Part shown: positions 5,960 through 31,850 of the stretch, piece by piece
How the letters are laid out: every line of letters starts with the position of its first letter
Position numbering within the stretch: the stretch's first letter is position 1
Source: an uncultured delta proteobacterium
Lineage (GTDB): Bacteria > Desulfobacterota > BSN033 > UBA1163
Reading direction: 5' to 3'
Assembly: GCA_963820625.1 (NCBI GenBank)
Contig: CAWGAV010000017.1
Location: 32,888-96,887 of the forward strand
DNA length: 64,000 bases
Notes under the pieces: generated by a model
What the model was told of the DNA's origin: nothing
The model's input: only the letters and a program-made list of their open reading frames with translations
Database searches by the model: none
Translations under genes and position numbers: made by a program

Positions 5960-6037
5960 TTTTATTGGTAGCGGTGTTAGGGGGAATGAAACCCCACTCC
6001 TCTCTTTACGAGCTTAGAGGGGTAAAAGGAGGAAAGG

Positions 6038-6739
6038 ATGTTTTTCTCTATTCAGAAGGAGTTATTCGATATCCTGCCTGATCTCACCATTGGGATGGTG
6101 GTGGCAAAAGGTATGGACAATGCCCATCCCTCTAAAGAGATTGATGACCTTCTCGCCCAGGCCGTGGAAGAAGTAAAGAAAAATTTCATCGGTGACAAAG
6201 CTCAGGAACACCCGAGGATCAAACCCTGGAGAACTGCCTTCTCCAAACTGGGTATTTCGGGAAGTAAGTTCCCAAGCTCCGTCGAATCCATGGCGAGGAG
6301 GGTTCTGAAAGGAGATCCATTCCCAAAGATCAATCCTCTTGTGGATCTCTACAATAGTGTCTCTCTGAGATTTTTAGTCCCGATGGGAGGCCATGATCTG
6401 GACACCATCGTGGGAAATATTCATCTCCGGTTTACGGAGGGATGGGAGCCCTTTACTCCGATGGGCGGCGGGGAAACCGTGACAGTGCCTAAAGGAGAGC
6501 TGGTTTATCGTGACGATCGAGAGGTGCTGACCCGAAACTGGGTATGGCGTCAGTGTGAGAAAGACAAAGCCACCGAGAAAACAAAAAATATCTTCATCCC
6601 CATTGATGTATTGGGTGAAGTGGGAAGAGAGCGGGCCGATGAAATCATTCTGGAGCTCTCAAATCTGATCCCAAAATATTTTGGAGGGACCCTCTTCTCG
6701 GCCATCCTGAACAGAGAAAATCCTTCTGTTGAGTTCTAA
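6038..6739 (+). CDS. B3/B4 tRNA-binding domain protein
   Basis: 233 aa with KPWRTAFSKLG...LVDLYNSVSL...PMGGHDLD, typical of the stand-alone B3/4 (PheT-like) domain family. Confidence 0.65.
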   Translation: MFFSIQKELFDILPDLTIGMVVAKGMDNAHPSKEIDDLLAQAVEEVKKNFIGDKAQEHPRIKPWRTAFSKLGISGSKFPSSVESMARRVLKGDPFPKINPLVDLYNSVSLRFLVPMGGHDLDTIVGNIHLRFTEGWEPFTPMGGGETVTVPKGELVYRDDREVLTRNWVWRQCEKDKATEKTKNIFIPIDVLGEVGRERADEIILELSNLIPKYFGGTLFSAILNRENPSVEF

Positions 6740-6995
6740 TATCCCCATCCCATCCGCTCCGTCGCTGAAGCTTTAGAGCGTAAGCGACCTTTCCCCCAAG
6801 AGACTGTGTCGTAATGTCATTCTGAGGCGTCAGCCCCTGCTCGCCGGCAGGCAGGGAAGAATCTCAAATTTATAAAGAATTGAATTTCTTAGATCCTTCA
6901 CTTCGTTCAGAATGACAATAATGGTTTTCTTTAATATTACGACCCAGTCTCCAAGGGGAGAGGGTAAGGGGTGGTAAAAACTCTGTATAAAAATA

Positions 6996-7030
6996 AAAGG
7001 GGAAGAGTAAACCTCTTCCCCTTTTAAATC
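6996..7030. terminator. Bidirectional intrinsic terminator
   Basis: AAAAGGGGAAGAGTAAACCTCTTCCCCTTTT forms a GC stem flanked by A and T runs, between the convergent genes 6038..6739 (+) and 7078..7239 (-). Confidence 0.6.
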
Positions 7031-7077
7031 TTTCTCTTTCCTCCAGAGGATAGTTAATCTTCTTTATCGGGGTGGGA

Positions 7078-7239
7078 TTAGTAGCCTTTTTTCTGAATCT
7101 CGGCTAAGCCTTCATCCACTGTGAAGACGGCACCGCACTTTGGACATTTAATCTTTGCGTCTTTCTGAATCCCTGCACACCCAAAAGAAAAAACTGCTAA
7201 AATCGCCAATGCCAAAAAGATGCTCACCCATTTCCTCAT
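7078..7239 (-). CDS. Small exported protein (53 aa) with CPKC motif
   Basis: MRKWVSIFLALAILAVFSFGCAGIQKDAKIKCPKCGAVFTVDEGLAEIQKKGY. Signal peptide plus Cys. Below the 60-aa cutoff of the ORF track. Confidence 0.35.
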   Translation of the reverse strand: MRKWVSIFLALAILAVFSFGCAGIQKDAKIKCPKCGAVFTVDEGLAEIQKKGY

Positions 7240-7378
7240 TAACCCTCACCTCCTTTCATGATATGTCAGGAATATCGCAAGTAAAATTATAGTATAGAGA
7301 AAACGGATAACAAAAATCCGTTTCTATGTCAAGTAAAAAATAAAGATTCCTTTTCTTCCCCCTTTGACATCCCTCCTC

Positions 7379-7450
7379 TTACTTCTTTTTCTTCGGTTTG
7401 GCCTTCTTCGTTGCCTTCTTCACCTTAGGGTGTTTCATCCCGCATGACAT
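7379..7450 (-). CDS. Candidate 23-aa lysine-rich peptide
   Basis: MSCGMKHPKVKKATKKAKPKKKK, preceded by a strong Shine-Dalgarno GGGAGGTGG 6-7 nt upstream. Confidence 0.25.
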   Translation of the reverse strand: MSCGMKHPKVKKATKKAKPKKKK

Positions 7451-7537
7451 ATTTTCGCCACCTCCCTTACTCTTTTATTATATTGATTTATTTATCTCTT
7501 TTAAATTAAAATTTGTCAAGGGTTTTCTTAAGAGAGT

Positions 7538-7569
7538 TCCGAAAAAGTCCAGAAATCTCTAATCAAGAG
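7538..7569. repeat. 32-nt imperfect hairpin element GAGAGTTCCGAAAAAGTCCAGAAATCTCTAAT
   Basis: 28 of 32 identical to 31633-31665. The CCAGAAATCT core recurs at 43723. Confidence 0.55.
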
Positions 7570-7679
7570 AACGTATAGTAGTTTTTTAGGGCTCTCTCTT
7601 AATCTTTACCCATTGTACCCAATGCTTTAGGAAGACTCTGCATCAATTGAATTTAATTTAAAGCCCAAAGGAATGAAAA

Positions 7680-8822
7680 ATGGTTTCAAGATGGAACAAG
7701 ACCCCCTTTCCAAAGGGAACGCATTATCTCTCAGGAAATGAAGCGGCTGCCGAAGGGGCGATTGCAGCAGGATGCCGGTTTTATGCAGGCTACCCGATCA
7801 CCCCTTCCAGTGAGATCATGGAACGAATGGCCATTCGATTAAGAGAGGTGGGAGGGGTTTTTATTCAGATGGAGGATGAGATCGCCTCCATTTCAGCAGT
7901 GATTGGAGCTTCCTGGGCAGGCGCCAAAGCCATGACTGCCACCTCAGGACCTGGATTTAGTTTGATGCAGGAGTCCATTGGATATGCCGCTTTTACCGAG
8001 ACCCCCTGTGTGATCATTGATGTGCAGCGGGCAGGTCCCTGTACTGGACAGGCGACCCGGGTCGGAAGCGGTGACATCATGCAGGCCAAATGGGGTTCCC
8101 ATGGTGACTACCAGGTGATCGCCCTCTCTCCCTGGTCTGTTCAGGAGATGTATGACCTCACCCTTCGCGCCTTCAATTTAAGCGAGCGTTATCGAGTTCC
8201 CACCTTGGTGATGGCAGATGAGGCAATTGGCCATTTGAGAGAGAATCTCTCCATCCGCGCAAAGGTGGAGGTTTGGGATAGAAAGAAGAGGAAAGGAGGC
8301 TCCCCTTTTGGAACAGAAGAGGAAGACGGTGTTCCACCAATGCCTGTCTTTGGAGAGGGTGAACGGCTTCTGATCACGGGTTCCACTCACGATGCATTAG
8401 GATTTCGGAAGACCGATGATCCTGAGGTCCACGCCAAATTGGTGGGTCGGATCAATGAAAAGATTCTGAAAAACAGAAGTAGGATTGTCGAGATAGAGGA
8501 TTATTTTTTAGAGGACTCTGAAATAGCTACCATCGCTTATGGATTTACAGCTCGAACCAGCCTCTACGTGGTAAATCGCCTGAGAAAAGAAGGGATGAAG
8601 GTGGGGATGTTGAGGCTCAAGACCCTTTGGCCATTTCCGGATGAAGCTGTCACAGAGTTGGGGAAGAAAGTTAAAAAAGTGATCGTTCTTGAAATGAATC
8701 TTGGACAGGTGGCGGGTGAAGTGAAAAAGTTCTGCCGCTGTGATGTCATCCCTCTCAATCAGACCGATGGAGAGGTGATACGGCCTGAAACGATTCTGGA
8801 GATATTAAGGAGGGTCGCGTGA
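7680..8822 (+). CDS. korA: 2-oxoacid (2-oxoglutarate/pyruvate):ferredoxin oxidoreductase alpha subunit
   Basis: 380 aa. YAGYPITPSSEI and SGPGFSLMQE are characteristic of KorA/PorA domain I-II. Confidence 0.8.
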   Translation: MVSRWNKTPFPKGTHYLSGNEAAAEGAIAAGCRFYAGYPITPSSEIMERMAIRLREVGGVFIQMEDEIASISAVIGASWAGAKAMTATSGPGFSLMQESIGYAAFTETPCVIIDVQRAGPCTGQATRVGSGDIMQAKWGSHGDYQVIALSPWSVQEMYDLTLRAFNLSERYRVPTLVMADEAIGHLRENLSIRAKVEVWDRKKRKGGSPFGTEEEDGVPPMPVFGEGERLLITGSTHDALGFRKTDDPEVHAKLVGRINEKILKNRSRIVEIEDYFLEDSEIATIAYGFTARTSLYVVNRLRKEGMKVGMLRLKTLWPFPDEAVTELGKKVKKVIVLEMNLGQVAGEVKKFCRCDVIPLNQTDGEVIRPETILEILRRVA

Positions 8823-24016: not shown

Positions 24017-24029
24017 TTGGAAACAAGTC

Positions 24030-24917
24030 TCACTTTGGAATATTTCTTTTTAAAATCTTCAGAGCCTCTCTTTTCACTTTCATATCAGAGTCATTGATCG
24101 AAGCTTCGATTTCCTCTCTCAATTCGGACAGACTCCCCCCGCCCTCCTCAGCCAGGCTTTTCAAAGCTAATTCTCGAATGCGGTGATCTTTATCTTTGAG
24201 ACACTTTCTGTAAACCTCAAGATGCTCTCGAACTTCGGTAACTGGTCTTAAACAAACCAAGGCATCAAAACGGAGGTCCGGATCTTCATGTTCCAGATAC
24301 TTGAGATAGATACTTGTAACCTCTTCTTGTTTTGAGTAAAAACGCCATAGGTTAAAAAGGATGCATCTCTTCTGTTCTAAAGGACCTTTTTCCAAACGTT
24401 CCAATAGCAAGTTTAAGATCCTATCGTCTCGAAGATTGCATAGTGCATTGACAGCTGTCTGCTGGACTCGAATATCGCTATCATAAAGCCGCTCAATCAG
24501 GGGAATAGCTGCTTGGAAATTTCCTTCCCAGCCCACTGCAAAGGTTGCGTGCAGTCTCAGTTCAGCATCTGGGCTTTCCATGTCTTTTAACAAACGGTCA
24601 ACAAAGGGTTGGGAATTTTTCAAAAAAGGACCAATCACACTTAGTTGAATCGCTGCATGATTCCTGATTTCTTCATTTCCCGATTTATCTGAAAGAATTT
24701 CGTAGAGAGGCCAAGCGACTTCTTCTTTGGCAAAGGTTCCAAGTAATATTATGATCTCAGATTTCAAATCCTTATCAGCATACTTGATGGCCTTAAGAAG
24801 TAAGGGGATGGCCCGATCACTTTCCTGGGAAAATAATTCCAAGGAATCCACATGCTTTCTCGCCTTTTCAAGAATCCGCTCTCTGGGTTCAAATTCGATA
24901 ATGTGATTCTTTTTCAT
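24030..24917 (-). CDS. HEAT-repeat (PBS-lyase type) protein
   Basis: Repeating ~30-aa units containing D/E-x-x-V-R-x-x-A-x-x-A-L. Confidence 0.6.
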   Translation of the reverse strand: MKKNHIIEFEPRERILEKARKHVDSLELFSQESDRAIPLLLKAIKYADKDLKSEIIILLGTFAKEEVAWPLYEILSDKSGNEEIRNHAAIQLSVIGPFLKNSQPFVDRLLKDMESPDAELRLHATFAVGWEGNFQAAIPLIERLYDSDIRVQQTAVNALCNLRDDRILNLLLERLEKGPLEQKRCILFNLWRFYSKQEEVTSIYLKYLEHEDPDLRFDALVCLRPVTEVREHLEVYRKCLKDKDHRIRELALKSLAEEGGGSLSELREEIEASINDSDMKVKREALKILKRNIPK

Positions 24918-24940
24918 ATCTAATTTCTTTTCGTTTCACA

Positions 24941-25216
24941 TTAAGTGAACCTTACTTGAAGACGTTTCCCCAATGCCAAAGCTGCCCGTTTTAATGTGGA
25001 GAGTTTAATGTCCTCTGCGTGATTCTCAATCCTTGAAATGGCAGTCTTTTTGGTTTTAAGCCGACGGGCCAGTTCTTCCTGAGTCAATCCTGCTGACTCG
25101 CGTGCCTGACGAAGCATGACCCCTATCTTGAACTGTTCATATCCTTCTTCAAATCCCTTGGCAAATTCTTTGTCTCTCTTTTTCCTTTCCTTTATATATT
25201 TTTTTAGATCACTCAT
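24941..25216 (-). CDS. XRE-family helix-turn-helix transcriptional regulator (HigA-like)
   Basis: [31 protein letters not shown] is a canonical HTH_XRE. Confidence 0.7.
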
Positions 25217-25276
25217 TTTATGTTCTCACTTTTAATGAACAATGATAGCCACTTACACGATTTACACAAGAAATAA

Positions 25277-25861
25277 TCAGCGATCACCTTCTAGAAGAAA
25301 TCTACGTCCAGCTTCGGTGATTTCCCAATTTTTTTTGGGGGAATCTGGCTTTAAAAGAGGTGGTTTCATCATAGTCATATCCTTACGTGCCCATTTTGCT
25401 GTGTTTACCCAGCGGAGATCTTTCGGATTGGAGGGCAACGGTTCATAGTCTGCCTCCCTCAAGACACCTTTCATTGCCTTTTCAACTCTATTAAGTACAT
25501 CAATAACATTGGCTTTACCATTCAAGTCAACGAGAGCTTTAAGGATTGGTTGGTAATAAGCCTTAGAGGGTGTCTTTATCCCACGTGGCAACTGCTTTGA
25601 AGGTAATTTTATCCCTCCTGCTTTTTTATTCCTTAACCTCCTACCGGATATGAACCCGTCCCACCTTCTTAATAAGGAGCTAACCTTCTTTCGAAAAGAA
25701 GATAATTGCTCCGCATATTTGAGTTCTTCTTTTACACCGCTGAATTCGCCAATTTTAAAAGATTCCTGGACCTTTTTCTGGATGATGCTAATCTCATCAT
25801 TAAACTCATTCAGTAACATTTCAAAGGCTGCAGAAATATTGTCCGATTTTATCTTCGGCAT
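25277..25861 (-). CDS. Hypothetical protein: N-terminal coiled coil plus C-terminal Mrr_N-like winged-helix domain
   Basis: The C-terminal YYQPILKALVDLNGKANVIDVLNRVEKAM...LRWVNTAKWARKDM...NWEITEAGRRFL follows the Mrr N-terminal wHTH pattern. Lies in the AT-rich island. Confidence 0.4.
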   Translation of the reverse strand: MPKIKSDNISAAFEMLLNEFNDEISIIQKKVQESFKIGEFSGVKEELKYAEQLSSFRKKVSSLLRRWDGFISGRRLRNKKAGGIKLPSKQLPRGIKTPSKAYYQPILKALVDLNGKANVIDVLNRVEKAMKGVLREADYEPLPSNPKDLRWVNTAKWARKDMTMMKPPLLKPDSPKKNWEITEAGRRFLLEGDR

Positions 25862-25922
25862 AATCAGATCTCCTTATTTCTTAATTTATTATATTTTGCC
25901 AACTCCATCTTTACAAAAATTC

Positions 25923-26588
25923 TTACCCAAATAACTCTTCTAAGAATTGTTTAGTATGGTCAAGGGCATTAAACGTTTCTTGGAATCTCACATTTTCCCC
26001 TTTATGTAAAATCTTATTTGCTTTTGTTATTACCTTTTTCGCATTCCAATAGACCGAGTCGTTAATTATTTTTTTCTTTAAAGCCTCCTTTAACACCTCA
26101 CCAGCAGTCCCAAACTTAGACTCCATTTGTGAGCCTATTTTCTTTTTCAGCGCAAGCTCTATAATGCTACGTGATAGAACAACTGCTGCATTAAATTGCT
26201 CAAAAATAAAACAATATCTTGATTCCTTGTAAAGATTTTTTAAATTTTCAGGAATTTTCACCCCTTGTTTTACAAATGGGGGAACCAACTTAAACATATT
26301 ACGCGCCCATACTCCAGGCCAATGTAGACTGCTTTCATAAAACAAACCGATTTGTTCAGAAGAACCTAATCCTTGGAAAAAATCATTGTTAAACTTTATT
26401 AAAAGCTCCATTTTATCTGCCAACTTATTATCAACAAATTCTCTTATATCGACTCTGTCTATTTGGGTTAATAGTTCCGTTAACTCATCGAACTTTTCGT
26501 TAAATTCTTTTTCATACAATTTTTTATCATGAGTACTAAACCAATCAAGCAGCTCGGAAAGTTTTAAGTCTTCATTGTAAGAGTTCAT
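25923..26588 (-). CDS. Hypothetical protein with C-terminal DUF4145-like domain
   Basis: RYCFIFEQFNAAVVLSRSIIELALKKK...TAGEVLKEALKKKIINDSVYWNAKKVITKANKILHKGENV fits the DUF4145 pattern. Lies in the AT-rich island. Confidence 0.4.
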   Translation of the reverse strand: MNSYNEDLKLSELLDWFSTHDKKLYEKEFNEKFDELTELLTQIDRVDIREFVDNKLADKMELLIKFNNDFFQGLGSSEQIGLFYESSLHWPGVWARNMFKLVPPFVKQGVKIPENLKNLYKESRYCFIFEQFNAAVVLSRSIIELALKKKIGSQMESKFGTAGEVLKEALKKKIINDSVYWNAKKVITKANKILHKGENVRFQETFNALDHTKQFLEELFG

Positions 26589-26767
26589 TTAAACTCCTTA
26601 AGAAAAATAATTTCATATTCTTTCTTGGGTAAAGGCTCAAAATCAATCTGTTGCATTTTTCATATTTCTATCAAAAATGGAGGGGCGGGTCAAACGAAAA
26701 TCAGGATCCGTTATTTCAATAATTTTGAACTGTTGAGAAAGGAAAGAATATGGTATCATTATTGTGA

Positions 26768-27082
26768 ATGAAATGGTTTATAGATATCCATGGCCGCCAA
26801 ATTCGATTAACAGATGAACGAGAGGAGCATATCGAGAATGACCATCCAGAAATGTCTGGTCAAATTGACAAGTTACGGGAAACTTTATTGAATCCTGATA
26901 AGGTCATCCGGTCTCGAACAGATCCAGAGGTTGAGCTATTTTATAGGTATTACGATGTTACACCTGTTACAGAAAAGTTTTTATGTGTTGTAGTCAAAGT
27001 ATCGGCTAATGATTTGTTTATTATAACAACCTATTTCACTGACACGATGAAAAGAGGTGAGGTGCTATGGCAAAGGAAATAA
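26768..27082 (+). CDS. DUF4258-family protein (putative RelE-fold toxin)
   Basis: 104 aa. The C-terminal CVVVKVSANDLFIITTYFTD matches the DUF4258 core. 16-nt overlap with the downstream DUF2283 gene. Confidence 0.55.
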   Translation: MKWFIDIHGRQIRLTDEREEHIENDHPEMSGQIDKLRETLLNPDKVIRSRTDPEVELFYRYYDVTPVTEKFLCVVVKVSANDLFIITTYFTDTMKRGEVLWQRK

Positions 27083-27279
27083 AAGTTTGGTATGACAAAG
27101 AAGGAGATTATCTTGAGGTAATTTTTGAACGAAAAGCCGGTCACTTCAGGGAAACAGAAAATGATGCAGTGATGGAAAAAGTTGATGAGGAAGGGAACAT
27201 CATCGGATTTTCTATCTTAAAAGTGAGTGCTCTTAAAGAAAAACCTCTCTCAGTCAGCCTAAGAAACAACGTCATCTAA
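27067..27279 (+). CDS. DUF2283-family protein (putative antitoxin)
   Basis: 70 aa with WYDKEGDYLEVIF...DEEGNIIGFSIL, the DUF2283 hallmark. Confidence 0.6.
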   Translation: MAKEIKVWYDKEGDYLEVIFERKAGHFRETENDAVMEKVDEEGNIIGFSILKVSALKEKPLSVSLRNNVI

Positions 27280-27451
27280 ATGTGGGTAATACCTCATCTT
27301 CTTATCACTTTAATTTGGAAGCTATTAATTAACCCCATTTTGTCCCCCACTTTAATCCCCATTCATCCCCCTTTAGGAAAGGGGATTTACTTTCTTCCAA
27401 AATTGACAATGGGCTAAAATTATAGTATTTTTAACCACATAAACGGGTTAG

Positions 27452-29995
27452 GTGATAAGGGGGATTTTCCCTTTTAGTATCTTAAATCCTCCCAAAAATC
27501 GACATGCGGATGGTGACGGATTGAAAGAATTTCTTTCCATCGTTTCAAGACCTGTCAGGTACCTTGGCCAGGAGATCCATTCGATTAAAAAAGACCCTGC
27601 CGAGGTCAAATTAAAATTCTGTCTTGCCTTTCCAGATGTCTATGAAGTCGGGATGTCTCATCTAGGGATCCAGATCCTTTATCACATTTTAAATGCAAAG
27701 AAAGGGATCGCCTGCGAAAGGGCTTTTGCTCCCTGGGGGGATATGGAGAAGGTCTTAAGGGAAAAAAAGATTCCTTTTTCCTCCCTCGAATCCTCCACTC
27801 CCCTCAATCAATTCGATATCTTGGGTTTCTCCCTCCAGTATGAACTCTGCTTCACCAATGTCCTCAATATGCTCGACCTCTCCAATATTCCTTTCCTCTC
27901 AAAAGACCGAGATGACAGGTTCCCACTCATCATCGCTGGAGGTCCTTTAACCTTCAATCCAGCACCCGTCGCTGATTTTTTTGATGCCATGGTCATCGGA
28001 GATGGTGAAGAAGTGATTCTTGAGTTCTGCGATCTCGCGCTCCAATGGAAAGAAGCCAGGGCAAAGAAGGAGGATCTTTTAAAATCCCTCTCTCAACTGG
28101 AGGGAGTCTATGTCCCCAGTTTACATACAGAGGGTAAAAAGATTCGTAAAAGAGTGGTTTCTGACCTCAACCAAACCTTCTTTCCCTCCTGTCCGATCGT
28201 CCCTTACATGAAAGTGGTTCATGACCGCCTCAATATTGAGATCGCAAGGGGTTGCAAAAGGGGATGCCGTTTCTGTGAAGCAGGGTTTATCCATCGGCCT
28301 TACCGTGAGAGAAGTCCAGAGGTGATTCATGAGATTCTCAATACCTCCCTTAAGGGAACGGGTTATGAAGAGCTCTCTTTACTCTCACTTAGTGCTGGAG
28401 ACTACTCTTCCATCGGACCTCTTCTCTCTGATCTGATGGACCGATTTGAATCGAAGAAAGTGGCTGTCTCTTTTCCCTCATTAAGGATTGAGAGTGTGGT
28501 AGGACATCTGGCAGAGGAAGTAAAACGGGTCAGAAAAACCGGATTTACGATCGCACCCGAGGCTGGAACAGAACGTCTTCGAAGGGTGATCAATAAAGAG
28601 TTGGATGAAAGGGTCTTTTTCCAAGGTCTATCGGACCTCTTTTCAAAAGGGTGGAAGAACATCAAACTCTATTTCATGATGGGACTTCCAACAGAAAAGG
28701 AGGAGGACTTAAGAGGAATCATTGAGCTGACCAAAAAGATTGCTTCCTTAGGAGAGAAGCAGAAAATCCATCCTAATATCAATATCAGTGTTTCTACTTT
28801 CGTGCCCAAACCCCACACTCCTTTCCAATGGGAGTCCCAAATCCCTTTAGAGGAGATGAAGGAGAAACTCCATTTGATGAGGGATGGGGTAAAGAGAAAC
28901 CATCTCCGTTTTAAGTGGCAAGATCCCCATCTCAGTTTTTTAGAGGGAATTTTTTCGATGGGGGATCGAAATCTTTCCCGGGTTTTAGTGGAATCCTTTC
29001 GGCTGGGATGCCGCTTCGATGGCTGGAGCGATCAATTCCGTTACCCCCTCTGGAAAGAAGCCTTTGAGAAGACAGGACTGGAGATGGATTCCCACACCCG
29101 GAAGAGAAAATTTGAGGATATCCTTCCATGGTCTTTAGTCGAAACAGGGATGGATGAACAATTTCTTTGGGAGGAATATCAGAGAGGCCTCGAAGAAAAA
29201 ATCAGCCCCCCCTGTGTGAAAGAGAACTGTCATCGGTGCGGGATTTGCGACGGGAAGACCATCACTGTGAGAGAAAGTGATCCGGCAGAAATAAAAGCTC
29301 TGGAAAGAAGGGCAAAAAAAGACATCCGAAGGAAAGGGATCAAGAAAAAGATTCGACTGAAATTCAGAAAGGTGGGAGAGATACGATTTCTGAGCCATTT
29401 AGAACTTGCCCACCTCTTCTATCGGGCTTCAAAGAGGGCCGACCTTCCCCTCTGCTTTTCTGAGGGATTTCACCCGATGCCCAGAATCATCTTTGCCACA
29501 GCCCTTCCAGTAGGAATGGAAAGTTTGACGGAGATCGTGGATATGGAGTGTGAAGGGAAAATCACTCCCCTTGAAGTCATGGAGAGACTCAATCAAACCC
29601 TGCCATCAGGAATTGAGATCATGGATGCCGAGGAAGTCCCGATCTTTTTTCATCTATCCTCGTTACCCCATCCGTCGGTTTACTGGATTCCATTGGATCA
29701 TCTTCTTTCAAAAGAAGAAGCCGTCCCAAAAGTCAAAAAGGCTTTGGATAAAAAAGAGTTCTTCATTCATCAGGAGAGAGATGGAAAGAAAAGGAGTGTG
29801 GATATTCGACCCCTGATTGAAAAGATGGAGATCAAGGAGCAAAAGGAAAGATCAGAAGAAGCCTCCCGATGGGGAGTGGAACTGGTACTCCGGAGGGCAA
29901 TGGGAAGAACGGCAAAACCGGTCGAGATTGTTGGAGCCATATTGGGTTTGGAAGGGGAACCTCTTGCCCAATGCAAAGTCATCAAGTTGGAATGA
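27452..29995 (+). CDS. Radical SAM protein (TIGR03960-type) fused to a DUF2344 (TIGR03936-type) C-terminal domain
   Basis: 847 aa with CKRGCRFCEAG radical-SAM motif. The C-terminal half is DUF2344-like. This gene is conserved next to rng in many genomes. Confidence 0.6.
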   Translation: MIRGIFPFSILNPPKNRHADGDGLKEFLSIVSRPVRYLGQEIHSIKKDPAEVKLKFCLAFPDVYEVGMSHLGIQILYHILNAKKGIACERAFAPWGDMEKVLREKKIPFSSLESSTPLNQFDILGFSLQYELCFTNVLNMLDLSNIPFLSKDRDDRFPLIIAGGPLTFNPAPVADFFDAMVIGDGEEVILEFCDLALQWKEARAKKEDLLKSLSQLEGVYVPSLHTEGKKIRKRVVSDLNQTFFPSCPIVPYMKVVHDRLNIEIARGCKRGCRFCEAGFIHRPYRERSPEVIHEILNTSLKGTGYEELSLLSLSAGDYSSIGPLLSDLMDRFESKKVAVSFPSLRIESVVGHLAEEVKRVRKTGFTIAPEAGTERLRRVINKELDERVFFQGLSDLFSKGWKNIKLYFMMGLPTEKEEDLRGIIELTKKIASLGEKQKIHPNINISVSTFVPKPHTPFQWESQIPLEEMKEKLHLMRDGVKRNHLRFKWQDPHLSFLEGIFSMGDRNLSRVLVESFRLGCRFDGWSDQFRYPLWKEAFEKTGLEMDSHTRKRKFEDILPWSLVETGMDEQFLWEEYQRGLEEKISPPCVKENCHRCGICDGKTITVRESDPAEIKALERRAKKDIRRKGIKKKIRLKFRKVGEIRFLSHLELAHLFYRASKRADLPLCFSEGFHPMPRIIFATALPVGMESLTEIVDMECEGKITPLEVMERLNQTLPSGIEIMDAEEVPIFFHLSSLPHPSVYWIPLDHLLSKEEAVPKVKKALDKKEFFIHQERDGKKRSVDIRPLIEKMEIKEQKERSEEASRWGVELVLRRAMGRTAKPVEIVGAILGLEGEPLAQCKVIKLE

Positions 29996-30133: not shown

Positions 30134-31627
30134 ATGGCGAATGAACTCATCATTAACGTGACGCAACAAGAGACAAGGGTCGCCCTTTTGGAGGATCGGG
30201 CTCTTGCCGAACTTTATATCGAGCGCACCAAAGACCGGGGAATCATGGGGAATATCTATAAGGGGAAAGTGGTGAAGGTCTTGCCTGGGATGCAAGCTGC
30301 TTTTGTCGATATCGGATTGGAAAAGGCCGCTTTCCTTTATGTCTCGGACGTCCATGGTGGGATCGAAGATTATGAGGAGATGGGTTTCCATGGGGAAGAG
30401 ATGCCTATCTATTTCAGCAGCCCTTCCTCACAGATCGAAGACCTCCTCTCCGAAGGTCAGGAGATATTGGTTCAGGTTTCCAAAGAGCCTCTCGGCACGA
30501 AAGGAACCCGAATCACCTCTCACACTACATTGCCCGGCAGGTATCTTGTCTACATGCCCCTGGTGGATCATATCGGTGTTTCAAGAAGGATCAAGGATGA
30601 AAAGGAACGAAGGAGGTTGAGAGAGATCGTCCAATCGATGAAACCCCCTGCCGGTGGTTTCATCGTGCGGACAGCCAGTGAAGGGGCAGAGGTGGACGAA
30701 ATTCGAACCGACATGGAATTCCTCCTCCATCTCTGGAATAACATTCAGAAGAAGAGAGAAAATTCAACGGCCCCGTCACTGATCCACAGTGACCTGACCA
30801 TGGTTCTTCGGGTCATCCGGGATATCCTCTCCCCACAGGTCAATCGAATCATCATCGACTCTAAAGAAGAATATGATAACATTCTCTCCTTCATCAATAC
30901 CTATATGCCAAAACAAAAATATGAGATGATCCTCTATGAGAAGAAAGAGCCGATCTTTGATGCTTATGGGATTGAGATGGAGATTGACAAAATCCTGGGC
31001 AGTAAGATTTGGCTCAAATCCGGAGGGTACATCGTCATTGATATGAGCGAAGCCCTGGTGGCCATTGATGTGAATACAGGAAGGTATGTGGGCAAGAGAA
31101 ATTTAGCGGATACGATCCTTAAAACCAACCTGGAAGCATCGAAGGAGATCGCCTACCAATTGAGATTACGGAATATCGGAGGGATCATCATCATTGACTT
31201 TATCGATATGGAAAGAGAGGGTGATCGGGAAAAGGTTTATCAGGCTTTGGAAGAAGCCTTGAAGAAAGATCGACAGAAGACCAATATCTTTAAGATCTCA
31301 GAATTGGGCCTGGTGGAGATGACCCGGAAGCGAACCCGGGAGAACATCTCTCGGATCCTGGGTGAGCCCTGTCCCTATTGTGAGGGAGCTGGACTGATTA
31401 AATCGAAGACGACGGTCTGTTATGACATCTTCCGGGAGATCGAAAGAACTTCTACTGAACTGGGGGGGCATAACATCGTAGTGGAAGCCAATCCGGAGAT
31501 TACCGACCTTCTTTATGAAGAGGAGAGGGCTGGCGTGGAGGAATTGGAGAAAAAACTGAGGAAAAAGATCGTCATTAAGGGCAAGGCCGGATTCCACCAG
31601 GAGCAATTCAGCATCATTGAAATATGA
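30134..31627 (+). CDS. rng: Ribonuclease G (Rne/Rng family, CafA)
   Basis: 497 aa. S1 domain (IYKGKVVKVLPGMQAAFVDIG), DNase-I-like catalytic core, and zinc link CPYCEG. Confidence 0.8.
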   Translation: MANELIINVTQQETRVALLEDRALAELYIERTKDRGIMGNIYKGKVVKVLPGMQAAFVDIGLEKAAFLYVSDVHGGIEDYEEMGFHGEEMPIYFSSPSSQIEDLLSEGQEILVQVSKEPLGTKGTRITSHTTLPGRYLVYMPLVDHIGVSRRIKDEKERRRLREIVQSMKPPAGGFIVRTASEGAEVDEIRTDMEFLLHLWNNIQKKRENSTAPSLIHSDLTMVLRVIRDILSPQVNRIIIDSKEEYDNILSFINTYMPKQKYEMILYEKKEPIFDAYGIEMEIDKILGSKIWLKSGGYIVIDMSEALVAIDVNTGRYVGKRNLADTILKTNLEASKEIAYQLRLRNIGGIIIIDFIDMEREGDREKVYQALEEALKKDRQKTNIFKISELGLVEMTRKRTRENISRILGEPCPYCEGAGLIKSKTTVCYDIFREIERTSTELGGHNIVVEANPEITDLLYEEERAGVEELEKKLRKKIVIKGKAGFHQEQFSIIEI

Positions 31628-31632
31628 GAAAA

Positions 31633-31665
31633 GAGACTTCTGAAAAATTCCAGAAATCTCTGATT
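31633..31665. repeat. 32-nt imperfect hairpin element GAGACTTCTGAAAAATTCCAGAAATCTCTGAT
   Basis: Second copy of the 7538-7569 element, just downstream of the rng stop. Confidence 0.55.
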
Positions 31666-31791
31666 CCACCGATTAGGAACCGATTACACAGATATGAAAT
31701 TCAGTGAAACATCATGAAAATCCGTATAATCCTCTTTTAAAATCTGTGTTATCAAGAGAGCGTGAAGGTTTTTCTTAGAGCTCTCAAAAAT

Positions 31792-31820
31792 TTGACAATA
31801 AGCTAAAAATCAATTAATAT
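31792..31820 (+). promoter_or_regulatory. Sigma-70-type promoter of the rplU-rpmA-obg operon
   Basis: TTGACA, a 17-nt spacer, then TAATAT, about 30 nt upstream of rplU. Confidence 0.55.
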
Positions 31821-31850
31821 TCATCAATTATTTTAATTCGGAGGAGTCTG

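Follow-up and report, generated by a model that had tools for sequence, protein, structure and literature searches.

The question raised by this locus is whether a group of small, AT-rich genes lying ahead of a conserved radical-SAM gene forms one defence unit, or whether these genes merely share an insertion site. The window, i.e. the whole stretch of 64,000 nucleotides analysed here, had received a first-pass annotation in which three minus-strand genes, encoding a D4145-like protein, a protein with an Mrr_N winged helix and an XRE regulator, were read together with a divergent toxin-antitoxin pair as a candidate phage-defence or abortive-infection unit. All five open reading frames are indeed present at the positions and on the strands assigned to them (Table 1), and the minus-strand genes and their neighbours belong to conflict-system families as had been supposed. 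The genes do not behave as one system, however. We conclude that the segment is probably a hotspot insert assembled from independent small conflict modules.

Table 1. Features of the variable segment and their positions in the window.
Feature	Position	Strand	Length	Basis or description
Variable cassette region (hotspot insert)	24022..27396			between proline dehydrogenase and radical-SAM genes (approximate limits)
HEAT-repeat protein	24030..24917	-	295 aa	Pfam HEAT_2, 1.2e-20
Orphan HigA-type XRE antitoxin	24941..25216	-	91 aa	HTH_3, 1.9e-11
Hairpin/Mrr_N protein	25277..25861	-	194 aa	hairpin (residues 6-75), basic linker, Mrr_N winged helix (residues 99-192)
Promoter-like site TTGTAA-17-TATAAT	25888..25916	-		between D4145-like and Mrr_N genes; consensus scan, 10/12 matches
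D4145-like protein	25923..26588	-	221 aa	N-terminal family-specific helical region, C-terminal HEPN-fold DUF4145 (residues ~125-220)
Divergent intergenic region	26589..26767			GC 0.307, lowest in window
Predicted BECR-fold toxin (PBECR2 / DUF4258 class)	26768..27082	+	104 aa	PBECR2, 29.2 bits (cut-off 27.1)
DUF2283 antitoxin candidate	27067..27279	+	70 aa	DUF2283, 33.1 bits (cut-off 23)
Terminator-like hairpin	27368..27384	+		consensus scan, 7-bp stem then T-run

The segment is accessory. By blastn, five relatives (L001, L002, L004, L005 and L006) match the window up to positions 24019-24021 and again from 27397-27398, delimiting an AT-rich insert of 3.4 kb. In three of them (L001, L004 and L006) the segment is missing and proline dehydrogenase (ProDH) directly adjoins the radical-SAM gene, the empty site in L001 being 130 bp, whereas L003 carries at the same site the PBECR2/DUF2283 pair only. 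The proposal of an accessory island is thus confirmed, but the left one of its suggested borders (24920-27300) lies too far inward. Since homology with the relatives stops and resumes where it does, the HEAT-repeat gene, previously taken as an outside flank, lies inside the variable segment. In the closest relatives, proline dehydrogenase is immediately followed by the radical-SAM gene.

The trough in GC content that had been noticed by eye is real and unique within the 64 kb, although the flanks have values of 0.45-0.47 rather than about 0.50. The estimate of one-third GC holds for 25.6-27.4 kb only, while the XRE, Mrr_N and HEAT genes have values of 0.41-0.42 (HEAT, 0.414). The mean of the window is 0.463 with a standard deviation of 0.034 (666-bp windows); all 666-bp windows with GC of 0.33 or lower start between 25801 and 26201, and the D4145-like gene itself has 0.33. 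The divergent intergenic region presumably holds the promoters for transcription in either direction, into the D4145-like gene and into the toxin-antitoxin pair; it contains a promoter-like site on the plus strand (26733-26762), and a weak 30-nt inverted repeat pairs 26595-26624 with 26742-26771 (77% complementary). The promoter sites found by the consensus scan are no more numerous than the shuffled expectation, so that the site between the D4145-like and Mrr_N genes counts as weak evidence. The terminator-like hairpin lies 3' of the toxin-antitoxin pair, just ahead of the conserved radical-SAM promoter region. The 64-kb window is devoid of tRNA genes, no ORF in the vicinity of the island encodes an integrase or transposase, and the direct or inverted repeats flanking the insert are at chance level, none being convincing.

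The plus-strand genes appear, from their sequences, to be an intact and self-contained type II toxin-antitoxin pair, with the toxin and antitoxin roles predicted. Their description as an overlapping, divergently transcribed DUF4258/DUF2283 pair stands with regard to the arrangement (the two genes overlap by 16 nt) and to DUF2283, but the toxin is nearer to PBECR2, its match to DUF4258 being sub-threshold (14.5 bits, 0.045). The literature places both families among the BECR-fold RNases. The copies at the same site in L003 are 88% (toxin) and 91% (DUF2283) identical at the amino acid level, the two genes have stayed together in L003 and L103, and the dN/dS values are 0.16 and 0.17, respectively. 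Since L003 carries the pair alone at this site, the pair seems to be an independent module, and its inclusion in a larger unit with the minus-strand genes is not supported. It shares with DUF4258 and PBECR modules a small BECR-fold toxin with a small partner in an overlapping bicistron that moves as a unit; the DUF4258 modules, however, are listed as antitoxin-first, and MqsA-type antitoxin fusions of them are reported (Gerdes 2025, PMC11980606), whereas here the toxin comes first and the partner is DUF2283.

The XRE gene was correctly recognised as that of an HTH regulator. More precisely, it encodes a HigA-type antitoxin from the gp49(HigB)/HTH family, which is very abundant, and it stands as an orphan, its toxin gene being cleanly missing. 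Its homologs number more than 7900, with more than 100 clusters at 85-99% identity, and it is 88-89% identical to P0306 and P0325, antitoxins encoded in canonical gp49(HigB)/HTH modules. In its length and its N-terminal extension the protein agrees with the antitoxins of these modules, in which gp49 is a toxin-first RelE/ParE toxin (Gerdes 2025, PMC11980606). A 119-aa PF05973 (gp49/HigB) toxin gene precedes the XRE relatives with an 8-bp overlap in 14 of the 14 contexts shown. In the window, in contrast, the toxin gene is missing, and 60 nt upstream lies the end of the Mrr_N gene, which is unrelated; no gp49 toxin is found in the whole window (tblastn of two gp49 toxins, best E 0.69), nor is a degraded one found upstream of the XRE gene. 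The nucleotide homology to the relatives begins about 6 nt before the ATG. The orphan is perhaps a remnant, but it could also have kept a function in repressing or neutralising related toxins.

For the D4145-like protein, the C-terminal DUF4145 domain proposed earlier is borne out at the level of the family. The window protein alone stays below the PF13643 cut-off (15.7 versus 23.1 bits), while an exhaustive profile search brings up 65 homologs, of which 44 match PF13643 (best 1.7e-10) and 2 match HEPN, and the protein has the four-helix HEPN fold. His195 is invariant (65/65), Asn191 is kept in 55 of the 65 homologs, and position -5 is Ala or Gly. Position -8 from the histidine, in contrast, is occupied by Ile in the window protein and by Ile or Val in all close homologs, with Arg in 14/65 of the wider family; the window protein therefore lacks the catalytic Rx4-6H motif in its DUF4145 form, which we take from the Pfam consensus to be R-x-x-G-N-x-x-x-H. 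Sixty columns, including the histidine motif, are invariant among 12 close homologs. The N-terminal half is modelled with pLDDT below 50 and has no recognisable Pfam domain.

The family is rare, with 12 clusters found among 5.8 billion, or 184 if its more distant members are counted. Profile comparison yields no real PDB relative, the best match (a NEDD8 E1 subunit, E 0.019) being spurious, and a Foldseek search of the HEPN model against the BFVD viral structures gives nothing at E < 0.6. No locus with the family is found in IMG/VR, and tblastn of the D4145-like and Mrr_N proteins against INPHARED phages and PLSDB plasmids gives no match. These searches thus revealed no relatives of the D4145-like family in cultured phages, plasmids or IMG/VR and provide no direct link to phage biology. 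Among the alternative neighbours, L094 u155 was compared with the family as a possible cryptic relative and showed no relationship.

The closest functional reference is provided by RAZR (PD-T7-4), the only characterised DUF4145 defence RNase, which acts in abortive infection as a single protein with an N-terminal zinc-ribbon sensor domain and a DUF4145/HEPN domain, and in which R146 and H154 are essential (PMC13017515). The window protein resembles RAZR in being small, in combining a non-catalytic domain at the N-terminus with a DUF4145 HEPN fold at the C-terminus, where the conserved histidine stands in a G/A-N-x-x-x-H context, and in its accessory locus. It has, however, a single Cys and no ribbon in place of the Cys4 zinc ribbon of RAZR, the equivalent of R146 is Ile, and its gene, unlike that of RAZR, is often trailed by a gene for a DNA-binding partner. 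No PADLOC model matches it at E <= 1, and we believe that PADLOC v2 includes PD-T7-4. The window protein falls within the DUF4145-like HEPN assemblage and, like the c2405-type HEPN family, has kept the histidine and lost the arginine (Anantharaman et al. 2013, PMC3710099), and both occur in restriction, abortive-infection and toxin-antitoxin neighbourhoods; the c2405 proteins carry an N-terminal AbiTii domain, whereas the N-terminus of the window protein is not detectably related to any Pfam domain.

The combination of DUF4145 and HEAT-type repeats in one small accessory locus is reminiscent of the BREX-associated defence protein BxaP (PMC10799925). BxaP, however, is one polypeptide with an N-terminal DUF4145, whereas here DUF4145 is C-terminal and the HEAT repeats are encoded separately, with two further genes lying between. 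The analogy was rejected because a HEAT homolog is absent from every other fetched locus, including those with D4145-like genes; there are also no BREX genes among the ORFs examined around the island. The match of the HEAT protein to the PADLOC model HEAT-ARM_XIII spans about 145 of the 1972 profile positions and so seems to reflect generic repeat similarity.

The annotation of the neighbouring protein as a coiled coil with a C-terminal Mrr_N-like winged helix agrees with a Pfam match to Mrr_N (37.9 bits, cut-off 29.5, residues 101-189) and with the AF2 model (pLDDT 82), in which two long helices form an antiparallel hairpin and are joined to a winged helix. Mrr, McrB and NsnA contain the same Pfam winged helix, which serves restriction-type defence there as a head for DNA recognition or sensing, sensing being its role in McrB and NsnA. 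It is N-terminal in those proteins, whereas here it is C-terminal, after the hairpin, in a standalone protein of 194 residues without nuclease, GTPase or ParB domain. An Mrr type IV restriction enzyme was dismissed for lack of the PD-(D/E)xK Mrr catalytic domain, and a HEPN/MNT toxin-antitoxin system for lack of a nucleotidyltransferase domain in any neighbouring ORF. A Foldseek search of the model against the PDB returns generic winged-helix and helical-hairpin matches only (E >= 0.056). The protein is predicted to be a DNA-binding partner or regulator.

Homologs of the hairpin/Mrr_N protein form 44 clusters among 5.8 billion, and comparison of two alternative neighbours (L081 u184 and L084 u163) with the family gives no relationship. 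Its distant relatives adjoin Eco57I/MmeI/Type ISP restriction enzymes (L125-L127), and the family also stands beside restriction enzymes without any HEPN gene; the neighbourhood in L097 comprises an MmeI-type enzyme, an AAA ATPase, GmrSD and UvrD. The earlier statement that none of the three minus-strand proteins belongs to a named defence system holds: PADLOC gives only generic HTH matches to the XRE protein, PADLOC and NCBIfam give nothing for the Mrr_N, D4145-like, toxin and DUF2283 proteins, and PADLOC gives nothing useful for the alternative neighbours.

How firmly the two proteins are linked was evaluated in nine independent D4145-like contexts, from loci retrieved with the window proteins and the first-search matches. 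An Mrr_N protein is encoded 3' of the D4145-like gene in 3/9 contexts, or in 4/9 when a protein that has just the N-terminal hairpin in common is included; a hairpin-domain protein is thus encoded within two genes downstream in the window, L082, L104 and L081. In L081, the C-terminal domain of the hairpin protein is unrelated to Mrr_N, and the neighbourhood holds two ParE genes and HicAB. The remaining five contexts have neither a hairpin nor an Mrr_N neighbour, and the pair is therefore not obligate. In other loci, what comes after the Mrr_N gene is either a gene for a 171-aa HTH/nuclease-like protein or nothing. The two genes of the pair evolve under purifying selection, with dN/dS of about 0.10-0.24 over many pairs (hairpin/Mrr_N, 0.235 versus L082), and both are intact ORFs preceded by AAGGAG ribosome-binding sites. 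A 99% identical copy (L103) has a homopolymer frameshift, with an A7 tract at gene positions 514-520, and the Mrr_N gene is split in L104, which could reflect either dispensability or assembly error.

These comparisons largely refute the initial reading, according to which the D4145-like, Mrr_N and XRE genes would together make up a novel system of three genes for defence or abortive infection, in which XRE serves as the dedicated regulator, and we consider it very unlikely. The genes are co-oriented with gaps of only 61 and 60 nt, some defence operons are under XRE-type control, and the XRE protein weakly matches the PADLOC HTH 'control protein' and capH. Nevertheless, XRE stands beside the other two genes only in the window and its near-identical copies, the Mrr_N gene has other followers or none elsewhere, the nearest antitoxins are always encoded 3' of a gp49 toxin, and the homology block of the XRE gene starts almost at its own ATG. 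The two remaining genes might instead be a toxin-antitoxin-like addiction pair, in which a HEPN RNase toxin would be neutralised and auto-repressed by a DNA-binding antitoxin. This seems quite unlikely: the HEPN gene occurs alone or with unrelated neighbours in five of the nine contexts, which is hard to square with a constitutively toxic protein needing an Mrr_N antitoxin, the canonical catalytic arginine and an MNT gene are missing, and the Mrr_N family has its own association with restriction enzymes.

The D4145-like gene is the sole element common to all nine contexts, and it might, on the other hand, be a self-contained abortive-infection sensor-effector of RAZR-like logic, with Mrr_N, XRE and HEAT as unrelated hotspot cargo. 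RAZR, too, consists of one DUF4145 protein, whose N-terminal domain is the sensor, and the D4145-like gene has its own strong ribosome-binding site, an AT-rich promoter region upstream and a promoter-like site separating it from the Mrr_N gene. We regard this as unlikely, because a rare hairpin-domain protein in 4/9 contexts is far above chance for such small families and the missing arginine speaks against RAZR-type catalysis. That the genes are non-defence or decaying cargo, as the remains of a degraded mobile element with a regulatory function or none, is very improbable, although the orphaned antitoxin, the frameshift and the split gene, the HEPN domain without canonical arginine and the lack of integrase, tRNA or repeats would be compatible with decay. 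The dN/dS values, the invariant columns including the histidine motif, and the intact ORFs with their ribosome-binding sites argue against it.

Among these possibilities, an assembly of independent modules accounts best for the data. The insert would then consist of the toxin-antitoxin pair, the orphan XRE gene, a loosely linked D4145-like/Mrr_N pair and the HEAT-repeat gene; the notion of one unit of three minus-strand genes is not borne out. Judging by its genomic associations, a defence role of the D4145-like/Mrr_N pair is plausible. We infer that the two proteins may interact, the HEPN protein serving as the effector, possibly cleaving RNA as RAZR does, and the hairpin/Mrr_N protein as a DNA-binding sensor or regulator, a function that Mrr_N has in its fusions to McrB, NsnA and Mrr. 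Since the canonical arginine is missing, the HEPN protein might alternatively bind RNA or a ligand, or act as a scaffold.

A more specific and only tentative proposal, which we hold to be rather doubtful, is that the Arg-less DUF4145/HEPN and hairpin proteins constitute a two-component defence module that has not been described before, in which the hairpin would be an adaptor linking interchangeable DNA-sensing heads (the Mrr_N winged helix here, the unrelated C-terminal domain in L081) to a HEPN effector. The hairpin/Mrr_N adaptor would serve Eco57I/MmeI/Type ISP restriction enzymes as well. The hairpin/Mrr_N protein could then be a shared sensor or regulator plugging into different effectors.

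The pairing of HEPN and Mrr_N has been undescribed so far and sits in an ordinary toxin-antitoxin/defence hotspot. If functional, it would be a new small, portable defence or addiction module, joining an Arg-less DUF4145 HEPN protein to a DNA-sensing partner that stands alone and is also found with type IIG/ISP restriction enzymes, and would broaden the picture that RAZR has given of the control of DUF4145 effectors. Otherwise, the locus would illustrate the ordinary pile-up and decay of toxin-antitoxin and defence cassettes at a chromosomal hotspot of uncultured Syntrophaceae-like bacteria. It also includes a HigA antitoxin that is a clear-cut case of an orphan.

Relatives were retrieved through the neighbouring radical-SAM gene and are Syntrophaceae-like Thermodesulfobacteriota MAGs with 74-90% amino acid identity. 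In three of their loci (L001, L004 and L006) the radical-SAM gene comes straight after the proline dehydrogenase gene, and in another (L003) the PBECR2/DUF2283 pair alone lies there, at 88-91% amino acid identity. The synteny comparison proposed in the first-pass annotation thus shows that the segment is accessory. Since nucleotide homology with the relatives ends at window positions 24019-24021 and restarts at 27397-27398, the variable region spans approximately 24022-27396; positions 26709-27473 are common to L003 at the nucleotide level. The HEAT-repeat gene, formerly taken as a conserved flank, lies inside this insert and is missing from all close relatives. Neither a tRNA, an integrase nor meaningful flanking repeats were found at the insert, which behaves like a cassette hotspot rather than an integrated element. 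The dS of the toxin-antitoxin pair (window 26768-27279 against L003 9071-9576) is 0.28-0.33, and that of the adjacent radical-SAM gene is about double (0.61), which suggests either a more recent exchange of the cassette than of the chromosome around it, or an effect of composition.

The five open reading frames described earlier were all found at exactly the same coordinates.

Genes of the insert and their Pfam matches
Feature	Window position (strand)	Length (aa)	Pfam result
HEAT	24030-24917 (-)		
XRE HTH	24941-25216 (-)	91	HTH_3, 1.9e-11
Mrr_N winged helix (residues 101-189)	25277-25861 (-)	194	37.9 bits, curated cut-off 29.5
DUF4145 (D4145-like)	25923-26588 (-)	221	15.7 bits, below cut-off of 23.1
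PBECR2 toxin	26768-27082 (+)		29.2 bits, cut-off 27.1; DUF4258 sub-threshold
DUF2283 candidate antitoxin	27067-27279 (+)		33.1 bits, cut-off 23

Of the supposed DUF4258/DUF2283 pair, the toxin is better assigned to PBECR2. PADLOC and NCBIfam searches gave no specific match for the island proteins other than XRE. The low-GC trough is real and the sole one in the 64 kb, with flanks at 0.45-0.47 instead of the 0.50 first estimated: against a window mean of 0.463 (sd 0.034), GC is 0.33 in the D4145-like gene, 0.307 in the divergent intergenic region and 0.37 in the toxin-antitoxin genes, and only mildly low (0.41-0.42) in the XRE, Mrr_N and HEAT genes. Immediately past the rng gene, at 31550-31850, GC falls a second time over a shorter stretch, to 0.34 in a 300-bp window.

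XRE has more than 7900 homologs, with more than 100 clusters at 85-99% identity across Nitrospirae, Brocadiales and Deltaproteobacteria. In 14 of the 14 contexts shown for two homologs (88-89% identical), a 119-aa PF05973 gp49/HigB-type toxin gene directly precedes the homolog with an 8-bp overlap; gp49 is listed as a RelE/ParE family in which the toxin comes first and the antitoxin is of HTH type (Gerdes 2025, PMC11980606). DNA homology to these canonical modules sets in ~6 nt before the start codon of XRE, and tblastn over the whole window found no gp49 homolog (best E 0.69). Judged from these sequence relationships, XRE is an orphan HigA-type antitoxin, and it may be a remnant of this common family. 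Because its company with the Mrr_N and D4145-like genes is limited to the window and near-identical metagenomic copies, it is not their conserved regulator. Few toxin-antitoxin components would be expected to keep 85-99% identity across organisms annotated as different phyla (P0206-P0325); a level this unusual implies that the gp49/HTH module spread widely by horizontal transfer, and very recently.

The D4145-like protein belongs to the HEPN-fold DUF4145 proteins, and its site is non-canonical. DUF4145 itself is an accepted HEPN family that occurs fused to restriction and helicase modules; it is present in the defence protein BxaP (PMC10799925), and in the abortive-infection protein RAZR it is the catalytic RNase, with R146 and H154 essential (PMC13017515). 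Only 12 close homologs (56-81% identity) were found among 5.8 billion clusters, and when 1.84 billion representatives were searched exhaustively with a profile, 184 clusters reached E <= 1e-3, of which 54 reached E <= 1e-10. His195 is invariant in the motif [A/G]-N-x-[IV]-[LM]-H, and Arg140, Glu144, Glu122 and Arg124 are near-invariant. The site is non-canonical because the Arg at -8, present in only 14 of 65 family members, is replaced by Ile or Val both in this protein and in every close homolog; it is possibly non-catalytic, and in keeping the His alone it resembles the c2405 HEPN family. The protein matches phrog_1305 (1.4e-8), and no relatives were found in INPHARED, PLSDB or IMG/VR. A 99% identical metagenomic copy (L103 1227-1285, ~window 26069-26075) carries a 1-nt deletion, A7 to A6, that truncates the protein ahead of the His motif and could reflect homopolymer slippage, phase variation or assembly error.

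The D4145-like gene was recovered in nine distinct contexts. Downstream of it are Mrr_N and then XRE in the window; Mrr_N (65% identical) and then a 171-aa HTH/nuclease-like protein in L082/L083; Mrr_N in two frames at the contig end in L104; and, in L081, the canonical Arg-containing HEPN-like u184 (hhalign 83.5%, E 8e-6) followed by u187, which has only the hairpin domain in common with the Mrr_N-family protein (hhalign 95.9%, E 5.5e-9; hmmsearch 1.5e-11). The L084 and L089 groups, L105, L107 and L109 have no related partner there. For such rare families, four contexts out of nine greatly exceed what chance would give; with a partner in those four only, the pairing is not obligate. Components are evidently shuffled among loci: the 171-aa protein (weakly matching Sigma70_r4-type HTH and Hjc, NERD and UPF0102 nuclease-like families) is 96% identical between L082 (2751-3266) and L102 (3071-3586), two otherwise different loci where it follows Mrr_N genes, that of L102 being apparently of ribbon-helix-helix type rather than hairpin type and having no D4145 gene nearby.

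Several of these loci show further features. The L104 Mrr_N gene (915-1218), which follows a D4145-like gene of 77% identity, is broken into two overlapping frames, suggesting a frameshift, and the contig ends within it. The L081 tandem (6001-8063) consists of an Arg-less D4145-like gene and u184 with its RSFRNDVHH motif, then the hairpin protein with an unrelated C-terminus, in an island also holding two ParE modules and HicAB. Homologous Lcl_C/BACON surface-protein genes (L089 718-2154 and L094 1289-3049; 55-61% amino acid identity) are followed by the D4145-like gene and a Y1 transposase in L089 and by a 155-aa gene of no known family and Mrr_N in L094; this arrangement therefore represents a second hotspot type, with D4145-like and Mrr_N as alternative cargo.

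The AF2 model of the Mrr_N protein (pLDDT 82) predicts antiparallel long helices (6-37 and 43-75) joined by a disordered basic linker to a winged helix (99-192); with this model Foldseek returned generic winged-helix and hairpin matches only. The family comprises 44 clusters, including a sister branch in which the hairpin gives way to a short N-terminus, ribbon-helix-helix-like by its sequence pattern. In McrB and NsnA, a fused Mrr_N winged helix is known to serve as a sensor. Distant members of the family (34-42% identity) are encoded 0-2 genes downstream of very large Eco57I/MmeI/Type ISP restriction-modification enzymes (1100-1380 aa) in L097, which also holds GmrSD and UvrD helicases, and in the IMG/VR contigs L125, L126 and L127.

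We consider it probable that independent conflict modules make up the insert as a mosaic. These would be an intact BECR/DUF2283 toxin-antitoxin pair, an orphan HigA antitoxin, and a HEPN effector loosely linked to a hairpin/Mrr_N DNA-binding sensor or regulator, together with a HEAT protein of unassigned role. The borders, the accessory status, the orphan state of XRE, the fold, the partial linkage and the selection are shown by the results given here; from them we infer a role in defence for the HEPN protein, and that Mrr_N would sense or regulate and interact with it. The three minus-strand genes had been proposed as one unit, which is not conserved as such; a true three-gene system is improbable, being disfavoured by the placement of XRE among antitoxins of gp49 modules.

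An addiction pair of HEPN toxin and Mrr_N antitoxin is also unlikely, given the five partner-less contexts and a HEPN protein devoid of the canonical Arg. A somewhat better, although still doubtful, candidate is a single-gene RAZR-like sensor-effector with unrelated neighbours. RAZR is the closest characterised relative in logic; the D4145-like protein is not a member of its family because it lacks both the zinc ribbon and the essential Arg. Decaying cargo is the least probable reading, since dN/dS of the D4145-like gene is low (0.10-0.23 across pairs; omega 0.18 in the least saturated pair, dS 0.53), indicating maintenance by selection; the Mrr_N protein gives 0.235 against L082. An analogy with BxaP, which combines DUF4145 with a HEAT-like domain, was set aside as the linkage does not support it, no HEAT gene being present in other D4145-like loci.

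There is nothing out of the ordinary in the toxin-antitoxin components of the mosaic. What is undescribed is that an Arg-less DUF4145 protein recurrently pairs with a hairpin/Mrr_N protein; the latter also accompanies type IIG/ISP restriction enzymes, a recurrent association for which no description was found in the literature searched.
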